A stretch of DNA of 64,000 nucleotides from Escherichia coli. Lineage in GTDB: Bacteria > Pseudomonadota > Gammaproteobacteria > Enterobacterales > Enterobacteriaceae. Location: assembly GCF_003334385.1 (NCBI RefSeq), contig NZ_QOWN01000025.1. The stretch is one strand, 5' to 3'. The notes under the pieces were generated by a model. The model did not search any database, was not told the origin of the DNA, and worked only from the letters and a program-made list of their open reading frames with translations. The position numbers were made by a program, and so were the translations under genes. Positions 5,130 through 56,543 of the stretch are shown in pieces (position 1 is the stretch's first letter; the number at the start of each line of letters is the position of its first letter).

Positions 5130-5993
5130 ATGCGTTGGCAAGGGCGACGTGAAAGTGACAATGTTGAAGACAGGCGCAACAGCTCTGGTGGTCCATCTAT
5201 GGGCGGTCCCGGTTTTCGCCTGCCAAGCGGTAAAGGCGGGCTGATTTTACTGATAGTCGTGCTGGTTGCAGGCTACTATGGTGTTGATTTAACCGGGTTG
5301 ATGACCGGGCAGCCGGTTTCCCAACAACAATCAACGCGGTCAATTAGCCCAAATGAAGACGAAGCCGCAAAATTCACCTCGGTGATTCTGGCAACCACGG
5401 AAGACACCTGGGGACAACAGTTCGAGAAGATGGGTAAGACCTATCAGCAACCGAAGCTGGTCATGTACCGTGGAATGACGCGTACCGGCTGCGGGGCGGG
5501 CCAGTCCATAATGGGGCCGTTCTATTGCCCGGCGGATGGCACGGTTTATATCGATCTCTCCTTCTATGATGACATGAAAGACAAACTTGGCGCGGATGGC
5601 GATTTTGCCCAGGGGTACGTTATCGCCCATGAAGTCGGTCATCATGTGCAGAAACTGTTAGGCATCGAGCCGAAAGTTCGTCAACTGCAACAAAACGCGA
5701 CGCAGGCGGAAGTAAACCGCTTATCTGTGCGTATGGAACTCCAGGCCGACTGTTTTGCCGGTGTCTGGGGGCATAGTATGCAGCAGCAAGGCGTTCTGGA
5801 AACCGGCGATCTGGAAGAGGCGCTGAACGCGGCGCAGGCCATCGGCGATGACCGTTTACAACAGCAAAGTCAGGGGCGAGTAGTACCAGACAGTTTCACT
5901 CATGGCACTTCTCAGCAACGCTACAGCTGGTTTAAACGTGGTTTCGACAGCGGCGATCCGGCACAATGCAATACTTTTGGTAAAAGCATTTAA
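5130..5993 (+). CDS. ypfJ: predicted membrane-anchored zinc metallopeptidase (YpfJ family)
   Basis: 287 aa; N-terminal hydrophobic helix [15 protein letters not shown]; HExxH motif in [10 protein letters not shown]. Confidence 0.85.
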
Positions 5994-8809: not shown

Positions 8810-8893
8810 GGCCTGATAAGACGCGTGAGCGTCGCATCAGGCATCGTTCACCATTGCCGGATGCGGCGTTAACGCCTTATCCGGCCTACGGTT
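8810..8893. repeat. pair of inverted REP elements (BIME)
   Basis: GCCTGATAAGACGCGTGAGCGTCGCATCAGGC and GCCGGATGCGGCGTTAACGCCTTATCCGGCCTAC between convergent ypfH and ypfN. Confidence 0.6.
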
Positions 8894-10638: not shown

Positions 10639-11000
10639 TTATGAGAATAAATACTCATTTAAGGGTGAAAACATTTTGCCTGCAAATGATTATCAGGAAA
10701 TATAACATTATCGAAGTATTCAAATTAACAACTATTAAATAATATTAAACATTTTTAACGTAAACATTAAGAATATTCATCTTGTTATCTGTCTGTATTT
10801 TAACCAGAATTAAATCAGTATTAGATGCCGTATGAATATCTCGAAATGTTGCTGTGTATCACATACAAATCATCACCGCAGGACCATAGTATTTACATAA
10901 GATTTGTCCCCCGGAGGTAGTCATCGCAGCAATCGAGTAAATTAGCTTCACCACGGTATATTGTTTCCGTAGAATACCCATAATTATAAGAGAGGTTGTT

Positions 11001-11060
11001 ATGATTGAACGTGAACTGGGGAACTGGAAAGACTTTATCGAAGTTATGCTTCGTAAGTAA
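11001..11060 (+). CDS. ypfM: 19-aa small protein YpfM
   Basis: ATG 11001 to TAA 11060 encodes MIERELGNWKDFIEVMLRK; AGAGAGG RBS 6 nt upstream; not in the ORF track because it is too short. Confidence 0.6.
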   Translation: MIERELGNWKDFIEVMLRK

Positions 11061-11120
11061 TTCCTGAGACAAAGTACAAACAGCAAGAACCCGCTGAGCA
11101 GGTTCTTAATCGGAAAGTTG

Positions 11121-11153
11121 AAAAAGGCGACACATTGGCATGTCGCCTTTTTT
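11121..11153. terminator. bidirectional rho-independent terminator (ypfM / acrD)
   Basis: AAAAAGGCGACA-CATTGGCA-TGTCGCCTTTTTT, a 7-bp GC stem flanked by an A-run and a T-run, 5 nt from the acrD stop. Confidence 0.55.
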
Positions 11154-11158
11154 ATTGC

Positions 11159-14100
11159 TTATTCCGGGCGCGGCTTCAGCGGGAAGCGGCGGCGCACCAG
11201 CACAAAGAACAGCGGCACGAAGTAAATAGCCAGAATAGTGGCCGAAATCATCCCGCCCATTACGCCAGTACCCACCGCATGCTGACCACCGGAACCGGCA
11301 CCCGTGCTGGTTGCCATTGGCAATACGCCGAAGATAAATGCCAGCGAGGTCATCAGAATCGGGCGTAAACGCTGACGGCAGGCGTGGAGCGTCGCTTCAA
11401 ACAGGTCGTGGCCTTTTTGGTTCATCTCGTTAGCAAACTCGACGATCAGGATGGCGTTTTTCGCCGATAAACCAATGACCGTTAACAGGCCCACCTGGAA
11501 GTAAACGTCGTTTTCCAGCCCGCGCATCCAGGTTGCCAGCAGCGCGCCGATTACCCCCAGCGGCACGACCAGCATTACCGAGAACGGCACCGACCAGCTT
11601 TCATACAACGCAGCCAGACACAGGAATACCACCAGCAAGGAAATGGCGTACAGCGCCGGAGCCTGCGCGCCGGAAAGCCGCTCCTGATACGACATCGCCG
11701 TCCACTCCAGACCAAAGCCGTTTGGCAGCTGCTTCACTAACGATTCCATAATATCCATCGCCGTACCGGTACTGACCCCCGGTGCGGCTTCCCCAACAAT
11801 CTCAACCGCAGAATAACCGTTATAGCGTTCCAGACGCGGCGAGCCTGTTTCCCAGCGTGAGGTCGCGAAAGCAGAGAAGGGCACCATGCCGCCATCTTTA
11901 TTTCGGACATACCAGAGATTGATGTCATCTGGCAGCATGCGATACGGCGCAGCTGCCTGCACATAGACTTTCTTCACGCGACCGCGATCCATAAAGTCAT
12001 TCACATAGCTCGAACCCCAGGCGGTTTGCAGTGTGTCGTTAATATCGTCGATAGCAACGCCCAGCGCCTGAGCTTTACGCTGGTCGATATCAATCTGCAA
12101 CTGCGGACTGTCGTCGAGGCCGTTATGGCGCACACGGGTTAGCTCCGGGTTTTCCGCCGCCAGCGCCAGCAACTGATTACGTGCTGCCATCAGCGCATCG
12201 TGACCCGCTCCAGCGTGGTCCTGCAACTCCATATCAAAACCTGCAGAACTACCAAGACCGCTAATTGCTGGCGGGCTGCTGGCGATAACGCGAGCTTCTT
12301 TAATTTGGTTAAACGCCTTCGTTGCACGCTCGATAATGGCAAACGAGGTGCCGGTCTTACTGTCGCGTTCGCTCCAGTCTTTCAGGCGGATAAACATTCG
12401 CGCCACGTTTTGCCCGTTACCCCCAGGGCCAGAACCAACGGTGGCAAACACCGACATGATGTTGTCTTTTTCATGGGTGAAGTAGTATTTCTCGATTTGC
12501 TCAACGACTTTCAGGGTCTGTTGTTGCGTTGAACCGCTGGGCAACTGTACCGAGGTAGTAAACATGCCACGGTCTTCCAGCGGTAAGAACGACGTCGGCA
12601 AACGCAGGAACAGGAACACCATGCCGCCAAGCAGCAGGACATAAATCACAATCCAGCGCAGGCTACGGTGGAGAATTTTCGCCACCCCTTTTTCGTAGCG
12701 TTCGGCGTTGCGGTTAAACATCTGGTTAAACCAGGCAAAAAAGCCTTTTTGCCCATGATGCTCACCTTTTTTCAGTGGCTTAAGTAGTGTGGCACACAGA
12801 GCCGGAGTGAGGATCATCGCTACCAGTACTGACAGCACCATCGCCGCAACAATGGTAATAGAGAACTGGCGATAGATGGCACCGGTGGTGCCGCCGAAGA
12901 AGGCCATTGGTACAAATACCGCCGAAAGAACCATCGCAATCCCGACCAGTGCCCCCTGGATCTGCCCCATCGATTTACGTGTGGCTTCGCGAGGAGTGAG
13001 TCCTTCCTCACTCATAATACGTTCGACGTTTTCCACCACCACGATGGCGTCATCCACCAGCAGACCGATCGCCAGCACCATCGCGAACATGGTTAAGGTG
13101 TTGACGCTGTAACCGAAGGCGTAAAGTACGGAGAAGGTTCCCATCAACACCACCGGCACGGCGATAGTGGGTATCAGCGTGGCGCGGAAGTTTTGCAGGA
13201 ACAGATACATAACGAGGAAAACCAGAGCGATAGCTTCCAGCAGCGTTTTCACCACGTCTTCAATGGAGGCTTTAACAAACGAGGTGGTTTCATACGCCAC
13301 CTTGTATTCCAGTCCATGCGGGAAATACTGCGCCAGCTCGTCGAGACGATTGAGCACCAGCTCCGCTGTCGCCATTTCGTTAGCGCCGGAGGCCAGTTTT
13401 ACCCCCAGCCCGGAGGCTGGCTTACCATTGAAGCGGCTAAGATAATCGTATTTCTCCGCCCCCATTTCGACGGTGGCGACATCGCCCAGCCTTACCTCTG
13501 AGCCGTCCTGATTGACCCGCAAGGTGATATCGCGGAACTGTTCTGGTGTTTGCAGCAGTGACTGGGCGTTAATGGTGGCGTTGAGCGCCTGCTTATCGAC
13601 GGAAGGTGTACCACCAAGTTGCCCAACCGCAATCTGCGCGTTCTGTGACTCAATGGCATCAGTGACATCTTTAGCCGTCATCTGGAAACTGTTGAGTTTC
13701 GCCGGGTCCAGCCAGATACGCATGGAATATTGCGAACCATAGGCATCGATATCCCCGACGCCATTCACGCGGCTTAACGGGTCCTGAATATTACTGGCAA
13801 CATAATCAGCAATATCCTGTTTATCCATCGAACCATCGGTAGAGACGAAGGCAATGGTCAGAATGTTGGTATCGCCGGTTTTACGCACCGTCACGCCCTG
13901 ATTTTGCACCGCCTGCGGTAACTTTCGCATGGCTGATTGCAGCTGGTTTTGTACTTGCTGCACGGCTTCGTCCGGATCGGTGCCTGCTTTAAAACTTAAA
14001 GTGACAGATGCCTGACCGGTGCCACTGCTCTGAGATGACATATACATGAGATTATCGAGGCCGGTCATATTTTGCTCGATAACCTGGGTCACGGTGTTTT

Positions 14101-25812: not shown

Positions 25813-26061
25813 AGTTTAGCTGCAATATATTAGTAAAGCTTATTACTGAGTTTGCGAATAATAAAAAAAAGCAGTCTATATAATATCTCGATATTATTTT
25901 ATTTATATTCATGCGTTGCATATGAAAGTTTATGCACCACAGCGAATATCTCTCCATTCTTAGTGATCTACCTCACCTTTTAAACGCGCTTGCCGAATTT
26001 TGTTATTTACTCTGACGAAAAATTGTCACGATACACGAAAGTTTTTCACAGGCGGCGACTC

Positions 26062-26397
26062 ATGGATAAAGAACGCATCATTCAGGAATTTGTGCCCGGC
26101 AAACAGGTCACACTGGCGCATCTCATCGCGCATCCCGGTGAGGAACTGGCGAAGAAAATCGGCGTTCCGGATGCGGGCGCAATTGGCATTATGACGCTAA
26201 CTCCCGGCGAAACGGCGATGATCGCCGGTGATTTAGCGCTGAAAGCCGCTGATGTGCATATCGGTTTTCTCGACCGATTCAGCGGTGCATTGGTGATTTA
26301 TGGCTCGGTGGGCGCAGTAGAAGAAGCGTTATCACAAACCGTCAGCGGTTTAGGTCGCTTATTAAATTATACGCTTTGTGAAATGACCAAAAGTTAA
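26062..26397 (+). CDS. eutS: ethanolamine microcompartment shell protein EutS (permuted BMC domain)
   Basis: ATG 26062 gives [10 protein letters not shown] (111 aa); first gene of the eut cluster. Confidence 0.9.
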
Positions 26398-26409: not shown

Positions 26410-26889
26410 ATGAAACGAATTGCGTTTGTGGGTAGCGTCGGGGCAGGAAAAACAACGTTATTTAATGCGTTGCAGGGGAATTATACCCTCGCCAGAAAAA
26501 CACAGGCCGTGGAATTTAATGATAAGGGCGATATTGATACGCCGGGTGAATATTTTAACCATCCCCGCTGGTATCACGCCTTAATTACCACGCTACAGGA
26601 TGTAGACATGCTGATCTATGTCCATGGCGCAAATGACCCGGAAAGTCGGTTGCCTGCCGGGTTGCTGGATATTGGCGTCAGCAAACGGCAAATCGCCGTC
26701 ATCAGTAAAACGGACATGCCAGATGCTGACGTCGCCGCAACGCGAAAGTTATTGCTTGAGACGGGTTTCGAAGAGCCGATTTTCGAGCTAAACAGCCACG
26801 ACCCGCAAAGCGTGCAGCAACTGGTGGATTATCTGGCATCTCTCACCAAACAGGAGGAAGCAGGTGAAAAAACTCATCACAGCGAATGA
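26410..26889 (+). CDS. eutP: ethanolamine utilisation P-loop NTPase
   Basis: 159 aa; Walker A GSVGAGKTT. Confidence 0.9.
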   Translation: MKRIAFVGSVGAGKTTLFNALQGNYTLARKTQAVEFNDKGDIDTPGEYFNHPRWYHALITTLQDVDMLIYVHGANDPESRLPAGLLDIGVSKRQIAVISKTDMPDADVAATRKLLLETGFEEPIFELNSHDPQSVQQLVDYLASLTKQEEAGEKTHHSE

Positions 26890-27565
26890 TATTCGTGAAG
26901 CACACGCGCGCGGCGAACAGGCAATGTCCGTGGTTCTGCGCGCCAGCATTATTACCCCGGAAGCCCGTGAAGTGGCGGATCTACTGGGTTTTACCATCAC
27001 CGAATGTGATGAATCGATCCCGGTAACGGCGTCCGTGCCCGCCAGCGTGCCAGCCGACAAAACCGAAAGCCAGCGCATCCGCGAAACCATCATTGCCCAG
27101 CTGCCGGAAGGCCAGTTTACCGAAAGCCTGGTCGCACAGCTGATGGAAAAAGTGATGAAGGAAAAACAGTCGCTGGAGCAGGGCGCAATGCAGCCGAGCT
27201 TCAAATCGGTGACCGGCAAAGGCGGCATCAAAGTGATTGATGGCAGTAGCGTCAAGTTTGGTCGTTTCGACGGCGCAGAGCCGCATTGCGTGGGCTTGAC
27301 TGATCTTGTGACCGGAGACGACGGCAGCAGCATGGCCGCCGGTTTTATGCAGTGGGAGAACGCATTCTTCCCGTGGACCCTGAACTACGACGAAATCGAC
27401 ATGGTGCTGGAAGGGGAGCTGCATGTTCGCCACGAAGGCCAAACCATGATCGCCAAAGCAGGCGACGTGATGTTTATCCCGAAAGGCTCCAGCATCGAAT
27501 TTGGTACGACATCCAGCGTGAAATTCCTGTATGTCGCCTGGCCGGCTAACTGGCAATCCCTATGA
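26864..27565 (+). CDS. eutQ: ethanolamine utilisation cupin-fold protein
   Basis: 233 aa; overlaps the eutP 3' end by 26 nt. Confidence 0.85.
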   Translation: MKKLITANDIREAHARGEQAMSVVLRASIITPEAREVADLLGFTITECDESIPVTASVPASVPADKTESQRIRETIIAQLPEGQFTESLVAQLMEKVMKEKQSLEQGAMQPSFKSVTGKGGIKVIDGSSVKFGRFDGAEPHCVGLTDLVTGDDGSSMAAGFMQWENAFFPWTLNYDEIDMVLEGELHVRHEGQTMIAKAGDVMFIPKGSSIEFGTTSSVKFLYVAWPANWQSL

Positions 27566-29416: not shown

Positions 29417-29710
29417 ATGGAAGCATTAGGAATGATCGAAACCCGGGGCCTGGTTGCACTGATTGAGGCTTCTGACGCGATGGTGAAAGCTGCGCGCGTC
29501 AAGCTGGTTGGTGTTAAGCAGATTGGCGGCGGCCTGTGTACTGCCATGGTTCGTGGTGATGTTGCAGCCTGTAAAGCCGCGACCGATGCAGGTGCCGCAG
29601 CGGCACAGCGTATCGGCGAGCTGGTATCTGTACACGTTATCCCGCGTCCGCACGGCGACCTGGAAGAAGTCTTCCCGATCGGCCTGAAAGGCGATAGCAG
29701 CAACCTGTAA
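29417..29710 (+). CDS. eutM: microcompartment shell protein EutM (BMC hexamer)
   Basis: ATG 29417 gives [26 protein letters not shown] (97 aa), canonical BMC domain. Confidence 0.9.
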
Positions 29711-29816: not shown

Positions 29817-30104
29817 ATGAAACTGGCAGTCGTCACTGGACAAATTGTTTGTACCGTACGCCATCACGGACTGGCGCATGACAAATTGCTGATGGTGGAA
29901 ATGATTGATCCACAAGGTAATCCTGACGGGCAATGCGCCGTCGCCATCGACAATATTGGCGCGGGAACCGGGGAGTGGGTGTTACTGGTGAGTGGCAGTT
30001 CCGCCCGCCAGGCGCATAAAAGCGAAACGTCACCGGTCGATCTGTGCGTGATTGGCATTGTCGATGAGGTGGTGTCTGGCGGTCAGGTAATTTTCCACAA
30101 ATAA
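29817..30104 (+). CDS. eutN: microcompartment vertex protein EutN (BMV pentamer)
   Basis: 95 aa (MKLAVVTGQIVCTVRHHG). Confidence 0.9.
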   Translation: MKLAVVTGQIVCTVRHHGLAHDKLLMVEMIDPQGNPDGQCAVAIDNIGAGTGEWVLLVSGSSARQAHKSETSPVDLCVIGIVDEVVSGGQVIFHK

Positions 30105-30115
30105 GGCAGAACATC

Positions 30116-31519
30116 ATGAATCAACAGGATATTGAACAGGTGGTGAAAGCGGTACTGCTGAAAATGCAAAGCAGTGACACGCCGTCCGCCGCCGTTCATG
30201 AGATGGGCGTTTTCGCGTCCCTGGATGACGCCGTTGCGGCAGCCAAAGTCGCCCAGCAAGGGTTAAAAAGCGTGGCAATGCGCCAGTTAGCCATTGCTGC
30301 CATTCGTGAAGCAGGCGAAAAACACGCCAGAGATTTAGCGGAACTTGCCGTCAGTGAAACCGGCATGGGGCGCGTTGAAGATAAATTTGCAAAAAACGTC
30401 GCTCAGGCGCGCGGCACACCAGGCGTTGAGTGCCTCTCTCCGCAAGTGCTGACTGGCGACAACGGCCTGACCCTAATTGAAAACGCACCCTGGGGCGTGG
30501 TGGCTTCGGTGACGCCTTCCACTAACCCGGCGGCAACCGTAATTAACAACGCCATCAGCCTGATTGCCGCGGGCAACAGCGTCATTTTTGCCCCGCATCC
30601 GGCGGCGAAAAAAGTCTCCCAGCGGGCGATTACGCTGCTCAACCAGGCGATTGTTGCCGCAGGTGGGCCGGAAAACTTACTGGTTACTGTGGCAAATCCG
30701 GATATCGAAACCGCGCAACGCTTGTTCAAGTTTCCGGGTATCGGCCTGCTGGTGGTAACCGGCGGCGAAGCGGTAGTAGAAGCGGCGCGTAAACACACCA
30801 ATAAACGTCTGATTGCCGCAGGCGCTGGCAACCCGCCGGTAGTGGTGGATGAAACCGCCGACCTCGCCCGTGCCGCTCAGTCCATCGTCAAAGGCGCTTC
30901 TTTCGATAACAACATCATTTGTGCCGACGAAAAGGTACTGATTGTTGTTGATAGCGTAGCCGATGAACTGATGCGTCTGATGGAAGGCCAGCACGCGGTG
31001 AAACTGACCGCAGAACAGGCGCAGCAGCTGCAACCGGTGTTGCTGAAAAATATCGACGAGCGCGGAAAAGGCACCGTCAGCCGTGACTGGGTTGGTCGCG
31101 ACGCAGGCAAAATCGCGGCGGCAATCGGCCTTAAAGTTCCGCAAGAAACGCGCCTGCTGTTTGTGGAAACCACCGCAGAACATCCGTTTGCCGTGACTGA
31201 ACTGATGATGCCGGTGTTGCCCGTCGTGCGCGTCGCCAACGTGGCGGATGCCATTGCGCTAGCGGTGAAACTGGAAGGCGGTTGCCACCACACGGCGGCA
31301 ATGCACTCGCGCAACATCGAAAACATGAACCAGATGGCGAATGCTATTGATACCAGCATTTTCGTTAAGAACGGACCGTGCATTGCCGGGCTGGGGCTGG
31401 GCGGGGAAGGCTGGACCACCATGACCATCACCACGCCAACCGGTGAAGGGGTAACCAGCGCGCGTACGTTTGTCCGTCTGCGTCGCTGTGTATTAGTCGA
31501 TGCGTTTCGCATTGTTTAA
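30116..31519 (+). CDS. eutE: CoA-acylating acetaldehyde dehydrogenase
   Basis: 467 aa aldehyde dehydrogenase family; N-terminal amphipathic helix (encapsulation-peptide-like). Confidence 0.9.
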   Translation: MNQQDIEQVVKAVLLKMQSSDTPSAAVHEMGVFASLDDAVAAAKVAQQGLKSVAMRQLAIAAIREAGEKHARDLAELAVSETGMGRVEDKFAKNVAQARGTPGVECLSPQVLTGDNGLTLIENAPWGVVASVTPSTNPAATVINNAISLIAAGNSVIFAPHPAAKKVSQRAITLLNQAIVAAGGPENLLVTVANPDIETAQRLFKFPGIGLLVVTGGEAVVEAARKHTNKRLIAAGAGNPPVVVDETADLARAAQSIVKGASFDNNIICADEKVLIVVDSVADELMRLMEGQHAVKLTAEQAQQLQPVLLKNIDERGKGTVSRDWVGRDAGKIAAAIGLKVPQETRLLFVETTAEHPFAVTELMMPVLPVVRVANVADAIALAVKLEGGCHHTAAMHSRNIENMNQMANAIDTSIFVKNGPCIAGLGLGGEGWTTMTITTPTGEGVTSARTFVRLRRCVLVDAFRIV

Positions 31520-33545: not shown

Positions 33546-33745
<200 letters not shown>

Positions 33746-34986: not shown

Positions 34987-36386
34987 ACACTCGCCAGCTA
35001 TTGAGCGTCGGTATCGATATCGGCACCACCACCACCCAGGTGATTTTCTCCCGGCTGGAGCTGGTTAACCGTGCGGCGGTGTCGCAGGTGCCGCGCTACG
35101 AATTCATTAAACGCGAAATTAGCTGGCAAAGTCCGGTGTTCTTTACCCCTGTCGATAAACAGGGCGGTTTAAAAGAAGCGGAACTGAAAACCTTAATACT
35201 CGAGCAATATCATGCTGCGGGTATTGAGCCGGAAAGCGTTGATTCTGGTGCCATCATCATCACCGGTGAAAGCGCGAAAACCCGCAATGCTCGCCCGGCG
35301 GTGATGGCGCTCTCTCAGTCGCTGGGCGATTTTGTCGTTGCCAGCGCCGGGCCGCACCTCGAATCCGTGATCGCCGGTCACGGAGCCGGGGCACAAACCC
35401 TTTCTGAACAACGGCTGTGTCGGGTACTGAATATCGACATCGGCGGTGGCACCGCGAACTACGCCCTGTTCGATGCCGGAAAAATCAGCGGCACTGCCTG
35501 CCTCAACGTCGGTGGTCGCCTGCTGGAAACCGACAGCCACGGGCGCGTGGTTTACGCTCATAAACCGGGGCAGATGATTGTGGATGAGTGCTTCGGTGCA
35601 GGCACCGACGCCCGTTCGCTGACCGGCGCGCAGCTGGTGCAGGTGACCCGGCGGATGGCAGAACTGATTGTCGAAGTGATTGACGGAACGCTCTCACCGC
35701 TCGCGCAGGCATTGATGCAAACCGGTTTGCTGCCCGCAGGTGTTACGCCCGAAATCATTACGCTTTCTGGCGGCGTGGGCGAATGTTATCGCCACCAGCC
35801 CGCCGACCCGTTCTGTTTTGCCGATATTGGCCCGCTGCTGGCAACTGCGCTGCATGACCATCCGCGCCTGCGTGAGATGAACGTACAGTTTCCGGCGCAA
35901 ACCGTGCGCGCCACGGTGATTGGCGCGGGCGCGCATACCCTTTCGCTCTCTGGCAGCACAATCTGGCTTGAGGGCGTACAACTGCCGCTGCGCAATTTGC
36001 CGGTGGCGATCCCGATTGATGAAACGGATCTGGTGGGGGCCTGGCAACAGGCGCTGATTCAGCTGGATCTTGATCCCAAAACTGACGCGTACGTGCTGGC
36101 GCTTCCCGCCTCGCTGCCTGTGCGTTACGCCGCGGTACTGACGGTCATCAACGCGTTGGTCGATTTCGTCGCGCGTTTTCCGAATCCGCATCCCCTGCTG
36201 GTGGTGGCCGGGCAGGACTTTGGTAAAGCTCTGGGCATGTTGTTGCGCCCACAGCTACAACAACTCCCGTTGGCAGTCATTGACGAAGTGATTGTCCGCG
36301 CGGGGGACTATATCGACATTGGTACGCCTCTTTTTGGCGGATCGGTTGTGCCGGTGACGGTGAAATCACTCGCATTTCCTTCCTGA
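34983..36386 (+). CDS. eutA: ethanolamine ammonia-lyase reactivase EutA
   Basis: 467 aa; 4-nt overlap with eutH. Confidence 0.9.
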   Translation: MNTRQLLSVGIDIGTTTTQVIFSRLELVNRAAVSQVPRYEFIKREISWQSPVFFTPVDKQGGLKEAELKTLILEQYHAAGIEPESVDSGAIIITGESAKTRNARPAVMALSQSLGDFVVASAGPHLESVIAGHGAGAQTLSEQRLCRVLNIDIGGGTANYALFDAGKISGTACLNVGGRLLETDSHGRVVYAHKPGQMIVDECFGAGTDARSLTGAQLVQVTRRMAELIVEVIDGTLSPLAQALMQTGLLPAGVTPEIITLSGGVGECYRHQPADPFCFADIGPLLATALHDHPRLREMNVQFPAQTVRATVIGAGAHTLSLSGSTIWLEGVQLPLRNLPVAIPIDETDLVGAWQQALIQLDLDPKTDAYVLALPASLPVRYAAVLTVINALVDFVARFPNPHPLLVVAGQDFGKALGMLLRPQLQQLPLAVIDEVIVRAGDYIDIGTPLFGGSVVPVTVKSLAFPS

Positions 36387-36397
36387 GGGAACGACTT

Positions 36398-37760
36398 ATG
36401 AAACTAAAGACCACATTGTTCGGCAATGTATATCAGTTTAAGGATGTAAAAGAGGTGCTGGCTAAAGCCAACGAACTGCGTTCGGGGGATGTGCTGGCGG
36501 GCGTCGCAGCGGCAAGCTCACAGGAGCGCGTGGCGGCAAAGCAGGTGTTGTCGGAAATGACCGTAGCGGACATCCGCAATAATCCGGTGATTGCCTATGA
36601 AGATGACTGCGTGACGCGGCTGATTCAGGACGATGTTAACGAAACGGCCTACAACCAGATTAAAAACTGGAGCATCAGCGAACTGCGTGAGTATGTGCTG
36701 AGCGATGAAACCAGCGTGGACGACATTGCCTTTACCCGCAAAGGGCTGACCTCGGAAGTGGTCGCGGCGGTAGCGAAGATTTGCTCCAACGCGGACCTGA
36801 TCTACGGCGCGAAGAAAATGCCGGTAATCAAAAAGGCCAATACCACCATCGGTATTCCGGGCACCTTTAGCGCCCGTTTGCAGCCAAATGACACCCGTGA
36901 CGACGTGCAAAGTATCGCCGCGCAAATCTACGAAGGGCTTTCCTTCGGGGTGGGCGATGCGGTGATCGGCGTTAACCCGGTGACTGACGACGTGGAAAAC
37001 TTAAGCCGCGTGTTGGATACCATCTATGGCGTGATCGACAAATTCAACATCCCAACTCAGGGCTGTGTACTGGCGCACGTCACCACCCAGATCGAAGCGA
37101 TCCGTCGTGGCGCACCGGGCGGGCTGATTTTCCAGAGTATCTGTGGCAGCGAAAAAGGGCTGAAAGAGTTTGGCGTGGAGCTGGCGATGCTCGACGAAGC
37201 GCGCGCAGTGGGCGCGGAGTTCAACCGTATCGCCGGGGGAAAACTGCCTCTACTTCGAAACCGGACAAGGCTCTGCGCTATCCGCTGGCGCTAACTTCGG
37301 CGCAGACCAGGTAACGATGGAAGCACGTAACTACGGGCTGGCGCGTCATTACGATCCGTTTATCGTCAACACCGTGGTCGGCTTTATTGGGCCGGAGTAT
37401 CTCTACAACGACCGCCAGATTATCCGTGCTGGCTTAGAAGATCACTTTATGGGCAAGCTGAGCGGCATCTCTATGGGCTGTGACTGCTGTTATACCAACC
37501 ACGCTGACGCTGACCAGAACCTCAACGAAAACCTGATGATCCTGCTCGCCACCGCAGGCTGCAACTACATCATGGGGATGCCGCTGGGTGATGACATCAT
37601 GCTCAACTACCAGACCACCGCATTCCACGATACCGCCACTGTGCGTCAGTTACTCAACCTGCGCCCGTCACCGGAGTTTGAACGCTGGCTGGAAAGCATG
37701 GGCATTATGGCAAACGGTCGCCTGACCAAACGGGCGGGCGATCCGTCACTGTTCTTCTGA
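36398..37760 (+). pseudogene. eutB: ethanolamine ammonia-lyase heavy chain, disrupted by a +1 frameshift
   Basis: Track splits EutB into 36398..37294 (298 aa) and 37170..37760 (196 aa). Frames switch at the G5 run 37235..37239: upstream frame reads ...FNRIAGG then nonsense; downstream frame reads ...SPGENCLYFETGQGS. Total span is 1363 nt, i.e. 454 codons plus one extra base. Confidence 0.8.
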
Positions 37761-37780
37761 TGACGCGGAGATAACATATC

Positions 37781-38668
37781 ATGGATCAAAAACAGATTGA
37801 AGAAATTGTACGCAGCGTGATGGCGTCAATGGGACAAGCGGCCCCCGCGCCGTCAGAAGCAAAGTGCGCCACCACCAACTGTGCGGCACCGGTGACCTCG
37901 GAAAGCTGTGCGCTGGATTTAGGTTCCGCTGAAGCAAAAGCGTGGATTGGTGTTGAAAATCCGCATCGCGCAGACGTATTAACAGAACTGCGCCGCAGCA
38001 CCGTGGCCCGCGTTTGTACCGGTCGTGCCGGTCCGCGTCCACGTACGCAGGCGCTGCTGCGTTTCCTGGCCGATCACTCTCGTTCGAAAGATACCGTACT
38101 GAAAGAAGTGCCGGAAGAGTGGGTGAAAGCGCAGGGCTTGCTGGAAGTACGCTCTGAAATTAGCGACAAAAATCTCTACCTGACTCGCCCGGATATGGGC
38201 CGCCGCCTGTGTGCAGAAGCTGTTGAAGCGCTGAAAGCGCAGTGTGTTGCCAATCCGGACGTACAGGTCGTTATTTCTGATGGCCTGTCAACTGATGCGA
38301 TCACCGTGAACTACGAAGAGATCCTGCCACCGCTGATGGCGGGCCTGAAACAGGCCGGGCTGAAAGTCGGTACACCATTCTTTGTTCGTTATGGTCGCGT
38401 GAAGATTGAAGATCAGATCGGTGAGATCCTCGGCGCGAAAGTAGTGATCCTGCTGGTGGGCGAACGTCCGGGGTTGGGTCAGTCAGAAAGCCTCTCCTGC
38501 TACGCCGTTTACTCGCCGCGTATGGCGACCACCGTTGAGGCCGATCGCACCTGTATCTCTAACATTCACCAGGGCGGCACGCCGCCGGTTGAAGCCGCAG
38601 CCGTCATTGTGGATTTGGCGAAACGTATGCTGGAGCAGAAAGCATCCGGCATCAACATGACCCGATAA
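37781..38668 (+). CDS. eutC: ethanolamine ammonia-lyase light chain
   Basis: 295 aa; N-terminal [17 protein letters not shown] amphipathic targeting-peptide-like segment. Confidence 0.9.
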
Positions 38669-38677
38669 GGAGGCATC

Positions 38678-39337
38678 ATGCCAGCTTTAGATTTGATTCG
38701 ACCGTCTGTCACCGCTATGCGGGTGATTGCCTCCGTTAACGCCGATTTTGCGCGTGAACTGAAATTGCCGCCGCATATTCGTAGCCTCGGTCTGATTTCT
38801 GCCGACTCCGATGACGTCACCTACATTGCCGCTGATGAAGCGACCAAGCAGGCGATGGTGGAAGTGGTGTATGGCCGCTCGCTATATGCGGGCGCTGCAC
38901 ACGGCCCGTCACCGACTGCCGGTGAAGTGCTGATTATGCTTGGTGGGCCAAACCCGGCGGAAGTGCGTGCAGGTCTGGATGCGATGATTGCGCATATTGA
39001 AAATGGCGCAGCTTTCCAGTGGGCTAATGACGCGCAAGATACGGCATTCCTGGCACATGTAGTTTCGCGTACCGGTTCTTATCTCTCATCAACCGCCGGG
39101 ATCACGCTTGGCGATCCGATGGCGTATCTGGTGGCACCGCCGCTGGAAGCGACCTATGGCATTGATGCAGCCCTGAAGTCTGCCGACGTACAGCTGGCGA
39201 CCTATGTCCCGCCACCGTCTGAAACCAACTACTCGGCAGCATTTTTAACCGGTAGCCAGGCAGCGTGTAAAGCAGCCTGTAACGCCTTTACCGATGCAGT
39301 GCTGGAAATCGCGCGTAATCCAATCCAGCGTGCGTAA
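38678..39337 (+). CDS. eutL: microcompartment shell protein EutL (tandem BMC)
   Basis: 219 aa. Confidence 0.9.
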
Positions 39338-39349
39338 CGGAGGTTGCCG

Positions 39350-39850
39350 ATGATCAATGCACTGGGATTGCTGGAAGTGGACGGCATGGTCGCCGCGATA
39401 GATGCAGCGGATGCCATGCTCAAAGCAGCTAACGTTCGTCTGCTCAGTCACGAAGTGCTTGACCCTGGTCGCTTAACGCTGGTGGTGGAAGGCGATCTGG
39501 CGGCGTGTCGTGCGGCGCTGGACGCAGGTTGTGCTGCCGCGATGCGTACCGGGCGTGTCATCAGCCGCAAGGAGATCGGTCGGCCAGACGATGACACCCA
39601 GTGGCTGGTTACTGGCTTTAACCGCCAGCCGAAGCAACCCGTAAGGGAACCCGACGCGCCAGTTATCGTCGCGGAATCTGCTGACGAGTTGTTGGCGCTG
39701 TTAACATCAGTACGTCAGGGAATGACGGCAGGAGAAGTGGCTGCCCACTTTGGCTGGCCGCTGGAAAAAGCCAGAAATGCGCTCGAACAGCTCTTTTCTG
39801 CCGGGACGTTACGTAAACGCAGTAGTCGTTATCGTCTCAAGCCCCATTAA
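39350..39850 (+). CDS. eutK: microcompartment shell protein EutK (BMC plus C-terminal HTH-like domain)
   Basis: ORF 39344..39850; ATG 39350 gives MINALGLLEVDGMVAAIDAADAMLKAA (166 aa). Confidence 0.85.
   Translation: MINALGLLEVDGMVAAIDAADAMLKAANVRLLSHEVLDPGRLTLVVEGDLAACRAALDAGCAAAMRTGRVISRKEIGRPDDDTQWLVTGFNRQPKQPVREPDAPVIVAESADELLALLTSVRQGMTAGEVAAHFGWPLEKARNALEQLFSAGTLRKRSSRYRLKPH

Positions 39851-56428: not shown

Positions 56429-56543
<115 letters not shown>

Follow-up and report, generated by a model that had tools for sequence, protein, structure and literature searches.

The first 19 residues of EutC encoded in the analysed stretch of Escherichia coli DNA (64,000 nt, hereafter the window) almost certainly constitute an encapsulation peptide of the metabolosome type, i.e. 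an amphipathic helix connected through a disordered linker (about 25-30 residues) to the small-subunit domain of ethanolamine ammonia-lyase. This finding is correct but not new, since published work deals with exactly the same residues. A modest value remains in the eutB-null allele located next to eutC, which is a genuine and widespread natural variant, present in many independently sequenced isolates and metagenomes.

The eutC gene is a plus-strand ORF of 295 codons (37781-38668), the first 20 of which occupy positions 37781-37840. A GGAG Shine-Dalgarno sequence (37767..37770, plus strand) can be read in the sequence 10 nt 5' of the ATG. On the basis of the hydrophobic moment, the predicted helix and the identity to Salmonella EutC1-19, residues 1-19 (37781..37837, plus strand) were assigned to the encapsulation peptide. 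Residues 20-43 (37838..37909, plus strand) make up a flexible low-complexity linker, rich in A, P, S and T and variable in both length and sequence, and residues 44-295 with the stop codon (37910..38668, plus strand) the catalytic, cobalamin-side domain of the small subunit. EutC passed the small-subunit family test (Pfam PF05985 / NCBIfam NF003971), scoring above the cut-off across the catalytic domain: the score against NF003971 was 339.6 bits (cut-off 230), and the profile match covered residues 52-294 only. Over its full length the protein shows 100% identity to the light chain of E. coli ethanolamine ammonia-lyase in PDB 5ysn_B. The catalytic domain starts around residue 44-52 and was modelled by AlphaFold2 with pLDDT values above 90. 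The crystallised chain in PDB 3any_B is truncated and has residue 44 as its first residue; because crystal forms such as 3any begin there, the peptide itself has yet to be seen in a solved structure.

In an earlier note on this DNA the N-terminus of EutC was described as amphipathic, with a low-complexity linker before the catalytic domain, and both features were recovered by computation. Helical hydrophobic moments (Eisenberg) were calculated for EutC segments of 11, 14 and 17 residues (about 280 segments). The segment starting at residue 4 ranked first at all three lengths, and residues 4-17 have the strongest helical moment in the protein. The helical periodicity, for which the earlier note had suggested a check, places I6, I9, V10, V13, M14 and M17 on one hydrophobic face (arc 80-220 degrees). 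In shuffle tests the amphipathicity of residues 3-17 gave p = 0.02, that of residues 1-17 alone p = 0.08. The AlphaFold2 model, built from an alignment of 44 sequences (mean pLDDT 89.8), shows a helix at residues 3-18 (pLDDT 82-88), coil at 19-49 and a confidently predicted domain thereafter, thus moment and model agree on an amphipathic alpha-helix in the range of 15-20 residues. Over residues 21-40 of the linker the pLDDT falls to about 46-50. A, P, S, T and G account for 65% of residues 18-43, versus 36% in the whole protein, and this segment is among the 26-mers of lowest entropy. That the linker is flexible and poorly conserved is seen alike in the alignment, the entropy, the pLDDT and the bounds of the profile match. 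This modular helix-linker-domain layout is the architecture that defines encapsulation peptides.

The N-terminus of EutC had also been said to parallel that of EutE (gene at 30116-31519; N-terminus MNQQDIEQVVKAVLLKM), and this holds: 7 of 17 positions are identical (M1, Q3, I6, E7, V10, V13 and M17). The encapsulation peptide of EutE, assigned from the translation and the strict motif, comprises residues 1-20 (MNQQDIEQVVKAVLLKMQSS; 30116..30175, plus strand). The core I-E-x-[IV]-V-[RK]-x-V-[ML] has exactly two matches in the six frames of the window, one in EutC and one in EutE, both at residue 6, where about 0.0006 matches would be expected by chance from the amino-acid frequencies. Of the motif proposed in the note, this core is exact in both proteins, whereas the preceding Q-x-I fits EutE only: EutE has Q4-D5-I6, but in EutC the glutamine is one residue out of register (Q3-x-x-I6 or Q5-I6). 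The N-terminus of EutE is less strongly amphipathic than that of EutC, its moment ranking 25th of 457 at length 11.

Conservation across the family follows the same boundaries. In 15 enterobacterial EutC proteins of 75-95% identity residues 1-17 are nearly invariant, I6, V10, V13 and M17 (all present in our EutC) being invariant or nearly so, while residues 18-43 are hypervariable and contain indels; conservation returns at ESCALDLGS. For a wider comparison one representative was taken per 50%-identity cluster, which yielded 94 full-length EutC proteins below 70% identity. An N-terminal extension of at least 34 amino acids before the conserved domain was found in 59 of these, and at least 32 of the 59 carry the strict amphipathic motif within their first 30 residues, whereas none of the 35 short forms does (Fisher p = 3.9e-9). 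The figure of 32 is a lower bound, since the strict regular expression undercounts distant peptides and missed such visibly peptide-like sequences as MNENTVEQIVVAVVRELQ and MDKQLVEMVTKLVVEKL.

The association of the peptide with shell genes was looked at in a sample of four loci. The peptide-bearing homologue P0141 has a EutL homologue (49% identity) as its next downstream gene, and the second peptide-bearing locus (L007) gave a weak BMC-domain hit only. Two short-form homologues have no BMC-domain genes nearby, whether over the contig or over 10 kb to each side. Acinetobacter baumannii has a EutC without the signal and a genome without shell genes (PMC9426561). Taken together, the four loci, the 94 EutC proteins and the A. 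baumannii literature indicate that the extension is absent from homologues without microcompartments. Locus L007, a JGI metagenome contig, is an unusual setting for a peptide-bearing EutC: next to this protein (P0243, 35% identity) it encodes, at 10860-12134, a 424-aa protein in which the weak BMC-domain hit is fused to a Cob_adeno_trans (adenosyltransferase) domain, and other shell genes are absent within 10 kb on either side. Two further homologues, P0209 (684 aa) and P0247 (753 aa), have EutB-like N-termini (MKLEIKMFQKKYQFESIKEVLAKANEEKSGD...) and match EutC at residues 456-679 and 491-732, respectively; judged by sequence, they appear to be single-chain EutB-EutC fusions.

The reading of these residues as an encapsulation peptide is further borne out by published experiments on the identical 19-mer. 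Choudhary et al. (2012) fused EutC1-19 of Salmonella LT2, which is identical to residues 1-19 of our EutC, to EGFP and beta-galactosidase (PMC3299773), and both fusions were taken up into native Eut compartments of Salmonella as well as into recombinant shells in E. coli (PMC3299773). The localisation of E. coli EutC1-20-GFP was described in native E. coli W3110 (PMC11334477). The GFP-fusion experiment that the earlier note proposed had thus already been published with a positive outcome in all three settings. Yang et al. (2024) found that deletion of eutC(2-19) left EutB in the cytosol and abolished growth on ethanolamine; EutC1-20 bound EutQ with a Kd of 5.5 uM, and the hydrophobic face common to EutC and EutE was defined as I6, V10, V13 and M17 (10.1101/2024.05.17.594633). 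In the same study enzymes without peptides were described to piggyback, EutB, which has no peptide, riding in on EutC (10.1101/2024.05.17.594633). As to the binding partner, EutS was reported in 2012 to be necessary and sufficient in recombinant shells (PMC3299773), while the 2024 work identified EutQ as the adaptor in native BMCs (10.1101/2024.05.17.594633). It must be noted that the strains used in these functional experiments, Salmonella LT2 and E. coli K-12/W3110, represent lineages other than the present one. In this literature the identical sequence is shown to be enough for bringing foreign proteins into Eut compartments and to be necessary for the encapsulation of EutBC. Besides targeting, the EutC peptide drives self-association and condensation of the cargo (PMC12339742).

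Could the helix be a chance amphipathic segment, or an element of oligomerisation or solubility without a role in targeting? Amphipathic helices are common, the shuffle of residues 1-17 alone falls short of the usual threshold, and the peptide does promote aggregation and condensation (10.1101/2024.05.17.594633; PMC12339742). Against this stand the localisation and deletion experiments on the identical peptide (PMC3299773, PMC11334477, 10.1101/2024.05.17.594633), which refute such a reading, as well as the restriction of the core motif to EutC and EutE within the six frames of the window, the juxtaposition of a conserved helix and a hypervariable linker, and the lack of the extension in the short forms of EutC. 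We give this explanation practically no credence, and none of the evidence speaks against an encapsulation peptide.

The encapsulation peptide stands at the end of a cargo enzyme inside a BMC locus with shell genes. All E. coli genes of the operon are present in the order eutS-P-Q-T-D(pta)-M-N-E-J-G-H-A-B-C-L-K-R, with eutA and eutB adjacent. The shell genes eutS (26062..26397), eutM (29417..29710), eutN, the vertex gene (29817..30104), eutL (38678..39337) and eutK (39350..39850), all on the plus strand, are intact, as are eutR and eutC. So is eutQ (26864..27565, plus strand; 233-aa ORF), which encodes the published adaptor of the EutC and EutE peptides. Its contact residues I76, L80, F85, L93 and V97 (codons 76-97, nt 27089-27154) have the spacing of the published Salmonella residues I72, L76, F81, L89 and V93 with an offset of +4. 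By their residues, the hydrophobic face of the peptide and the matching N-terminal EutQ helices H3 and H4 thus both appear to be present. An Rfam scan of the window returned REP-type naRNA4 and ES036 only, nothing bearing on eutC: the naRNA4 (REP-derived) matches lie in the eutG-eutH gap (33598-33679) and downstream of ypfH (8810-8886), the ES036 sRNA match near cysM/yfeS (56467-56509). An A run at 25863-25871, between maeB and eutS and some 190 nt 5' of the latter, is one A longer than in strain LR-06; besides the extra base in eutB described below, no other indel separates the 64 kb from that strain.

The exception in the operon is eutB (36398..37760, plus strand), the gene of the large subunit of ethanolamine ammonia-lyase, which is a pseudogene consisting of two ORFs and differs from its LR-06 counterpart by a single-base gap. 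The G run at 37235-37239 (codon 280) contains five G where other genomes have four, and the frameshift leads to a premature stop at 37292-37294. The resulting ORFs, 36398-37294 and 37170-37760, match positions 2-278 and 268-451 of the EutB profile, and removal of one G from the run restores a 453-aa ORF. Scored against NF011649, the two fragments (298 and 196 aa) reached 356.1 and 298.5 bits, both below the cut-off of 554; neither thus qualifies as a functional EutB, for which one uninterrupted ORF of about 453 aa with a score over 554 bits would be expected.

An extra base in a G run is open to suspicion, since homopolymer indels are the classic error type of long-read sequencing. If the frameshift were such an error, EutB would be intact and EutBC would be encapsulated normally. 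In favour of an error one may also cite that E. coli SCU-104 was the sole strain, out of 5,391 matching complete E. coli genomes, to align over all 2,271 nt without a gap. The truncated product of 298 aa, however, is recorded in exactly this form on 105 contigs of NCBI (E. coli KTE14, for example), JGI, Logan and ENA, human-gut and Illumina gut-metagenome assemblies among them. The collection has it in the index of 204 blocks, which include gut-metagenome assemblies made from short reads with SPAdes or MEGAHIT. Short-read contigs with the five-G (G5) allele carry private SNPs of their own. Moreover, although homopolymer runs of 5 nt or more number 240 in the window, not one indel separates it from SCU-104, in which eutB is likewise marked by PGAP as a pseudogene and 'frameshifted', and only two separate it from LR-06. 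The exact-sequence look-ups of the 298-aa product effectively refute a sequencing error, which we regard as very improbable. The frameshift of eutB, which had been noticed from the sequence alone, is therefore a genuine, inherited and lineage-wide allele, as follows from the 105 contigs, the short-read assemblies with private SNPs and the small number of indels.

A real frameshift might still be leaky. The P-site tRNA-Gly on GGG could slip by +1 on the G5 run, producing a low level of wild-type EutB, so that some active EutBC would be imported. On paper the shift from GCC GGG GGA to GCC GGG-G GAA would allow a perfect GGG-to-GGG re-pairing and would regenerate the wild-type A-G-E-N, and GGA, the next zero-frame codon, is a less-used glycine codon in E. 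coli. An EutB restored in this way, or by reversion, would span the junction ...NRIAGENCLYFETGQ... But the run is not accompanied by a stimulatory element of the prfB type (internal Shine-Dalgarno sequence or stop codon), and ribosomes slip spontaneously on runs of 5 nt at a frequency that is normally far below 1%, which counts against recoding. The secondary inactivating mutations of the operon in relatives, described below, also argue against its upkeep. For these reasons recoding of eutB seems highly unlikely to us, if marginally less so than a sequencing error.

Among complete genomes that of SCU-104 comes closest; 63,948 nt align to it with 15 SNPs and without an indel. One of these SNPs, C-to-T at window position 30009 (position 5612 of our locus L001), changes eutN codon 65 to a stop (Q65*, annotated as 'internal stop') in SCU-104, while eutN of the window is intact. 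The SNP spectrum is oddly one-sided, 11 of the 15 having C or G in the window and T or A in SCU-104. G5 alleles of eutB are also carried by metagenome loci L010-L012. In L012 eutA is split into ORFs of 301 and 160 aa by a lesion at 2491-2507, C-to-T at the equivalent of window position 35886, and this is a second inactivating lesion beside the eutB G5 in one operon. Both eutN Q65* and the split eutA fit an operon that drifts after loss of function and is no longer selected, and the eut operon is probably a decaying loss-of-function locus here. The G5 allele marks a circulating E. coli lineage that presumably cannot exploit ethanolamine, a compound tied to competitiveness in the gut. At the other end of the window (positions 1-75), the sequence begins within the terminal part of IS421, an IS4-like element whose insertion site is the 3' end of hyfA; other genomes, e.g. 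LR-06, have hyfB in this place. Several complete E. coli genomes share exactly this junction (AR_0149, CP8-3_Sichuan, BA92 and others). SCU-104 has IS421 there, too, but the first 52 nt of the window are unmatched in it and the left-end junction differs.

With eutB broken, normal import of active EutBC is impossible in this strain, and the peptide would deliver, at most, a catalytically useless EutC in the frameshifted lineage. Packaging of EutC without EutB, which the earlier note had raised, is a reasonable inference from the genuine frameshift and the published sufficiency of the peptide. It is possible, and we hold it only tentatively, that upon induction the Eut shell forms and EutC is packaged via its peptide and EutQ, giving compartments that contain a non-catalytic small subunit. 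Consistent with this, the peptide by itself is enough for targeting and does not need EutB (PMC3299773, PMC11334477). The window has a real lesion in eutB and intact copies of eutQ, eutS, eutM, eutN, eutL, eutK, eutR and eutC, the last with a GGAG ribosome-binding site of its own. On the other hand, 487 nt remain untranslated between the premature eutB stop and eutC, and an untranslated stretch after a premature stop generally allows Rho-dependent polarity in operons. We searched for an independent promoter that would free eutC from the operon transcript, and a consensus scan found no sigma-70-like site at 37200-37900; the two weak terminator-like hairpins seen there, inside the 3' end of eutB, were not considered meaningful. 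Given the untranslated stretch and the lack of a promoter-like site, polarity on eutC, eutL, eutK and eutR is plausible. EutL, which is essential to the association of shell and cargo (10.1101/2024.05.17.594633), is encoded downstream of the eutB lesion. The further decay in relatives (eutN of SCU-104, eutA of L012) suggests an operon without selection. Finally, structural work made use of an N-terminally truncated EutC chain. Full-length EutC is poorly soluble, hence the truncated chain in the crystals, and lone EutC may therefore be unstable.

One can go a step further and picture a human-gut E. coli lineage, with the G5 allele on 105 or more contigs, that has lost EutB but in some members has kept shell, EutQ, EutC and EutE intact, and in which either compartments with orphan EutC assemble when the operon is induced, or ethanolamine use is switched on and off reversibly, at low frequency, by the G5 run. 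This is a long shot. The former would amount to a natural state of an empty or mis-loaded organelle holding an orphan, catalytically dead EutC, the latter to a switch operated by reversion or by +1 slippage at the run, and either would be a natural experiment on BMC assembly independent of cargo. The G5 lineage could serve as a natural background in which to ask if Eut shells still form, and cargo with a peptide still assembles, when the signature enzyme is missing.

It is instructive to compare the EutC peptide, a textbook encapsulation peptide and a standard tag of synthetic biology for loading Eut nanocompartments, with related systems. At the protein level there is no difference between this EutC and that of E. 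coli K-12 W3110, from which EutC(1-20) was taken, or the chains of PDB 5ysn, 3abo and 3any. EutC of Salmonella LT2 shares residues 1-19, the operon position, the helix-linker-domain layout and the EutQ contact residues, but its linker differs in sequence, the E. coli linker being three residues shorter, and in the present lineage eutB is a pseudogene. EutE(1-20) belongs to the same operon and has the same core from residue 6. It is, however, more hydrophobic (A12, L14, L15), has a lower computed moment and is carried by a different cargo, aldehyde dehydrogenase. The two peptides are reported to bind the same crevice of EutQ with different affinities, and deletion of eutE(2-21) delocalises EutE (10.1101/2024.05.17.594633).

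More distant parallels are offered by other microcompartments. PduP and PduD of the Pdu microcompartment resemble EutC in having an N-terminal amphipathic helix of about 18 residues followed by a linker, although they belong to another organelle with other cargo, and no pdu locus was found in the 64-kb window. Like EutC, they combine condensation of the cargo with its encapsulation and contain a charge pair of the E7/R11 type, which in EutC is E7/R11 itself; they differ by an acidic residue where EutC has S16, and EutC condenses more weakly than they do (PMC12339742). CcmN of the beta-carboxysome likewise joins a short amphipathic helix through a linker to a domain and associates with the shell. 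Its peptide, unlike that of EutC, is C-terminal, does not have the metabolosome motifs and drove no condensation of cargo (PMC12339742).
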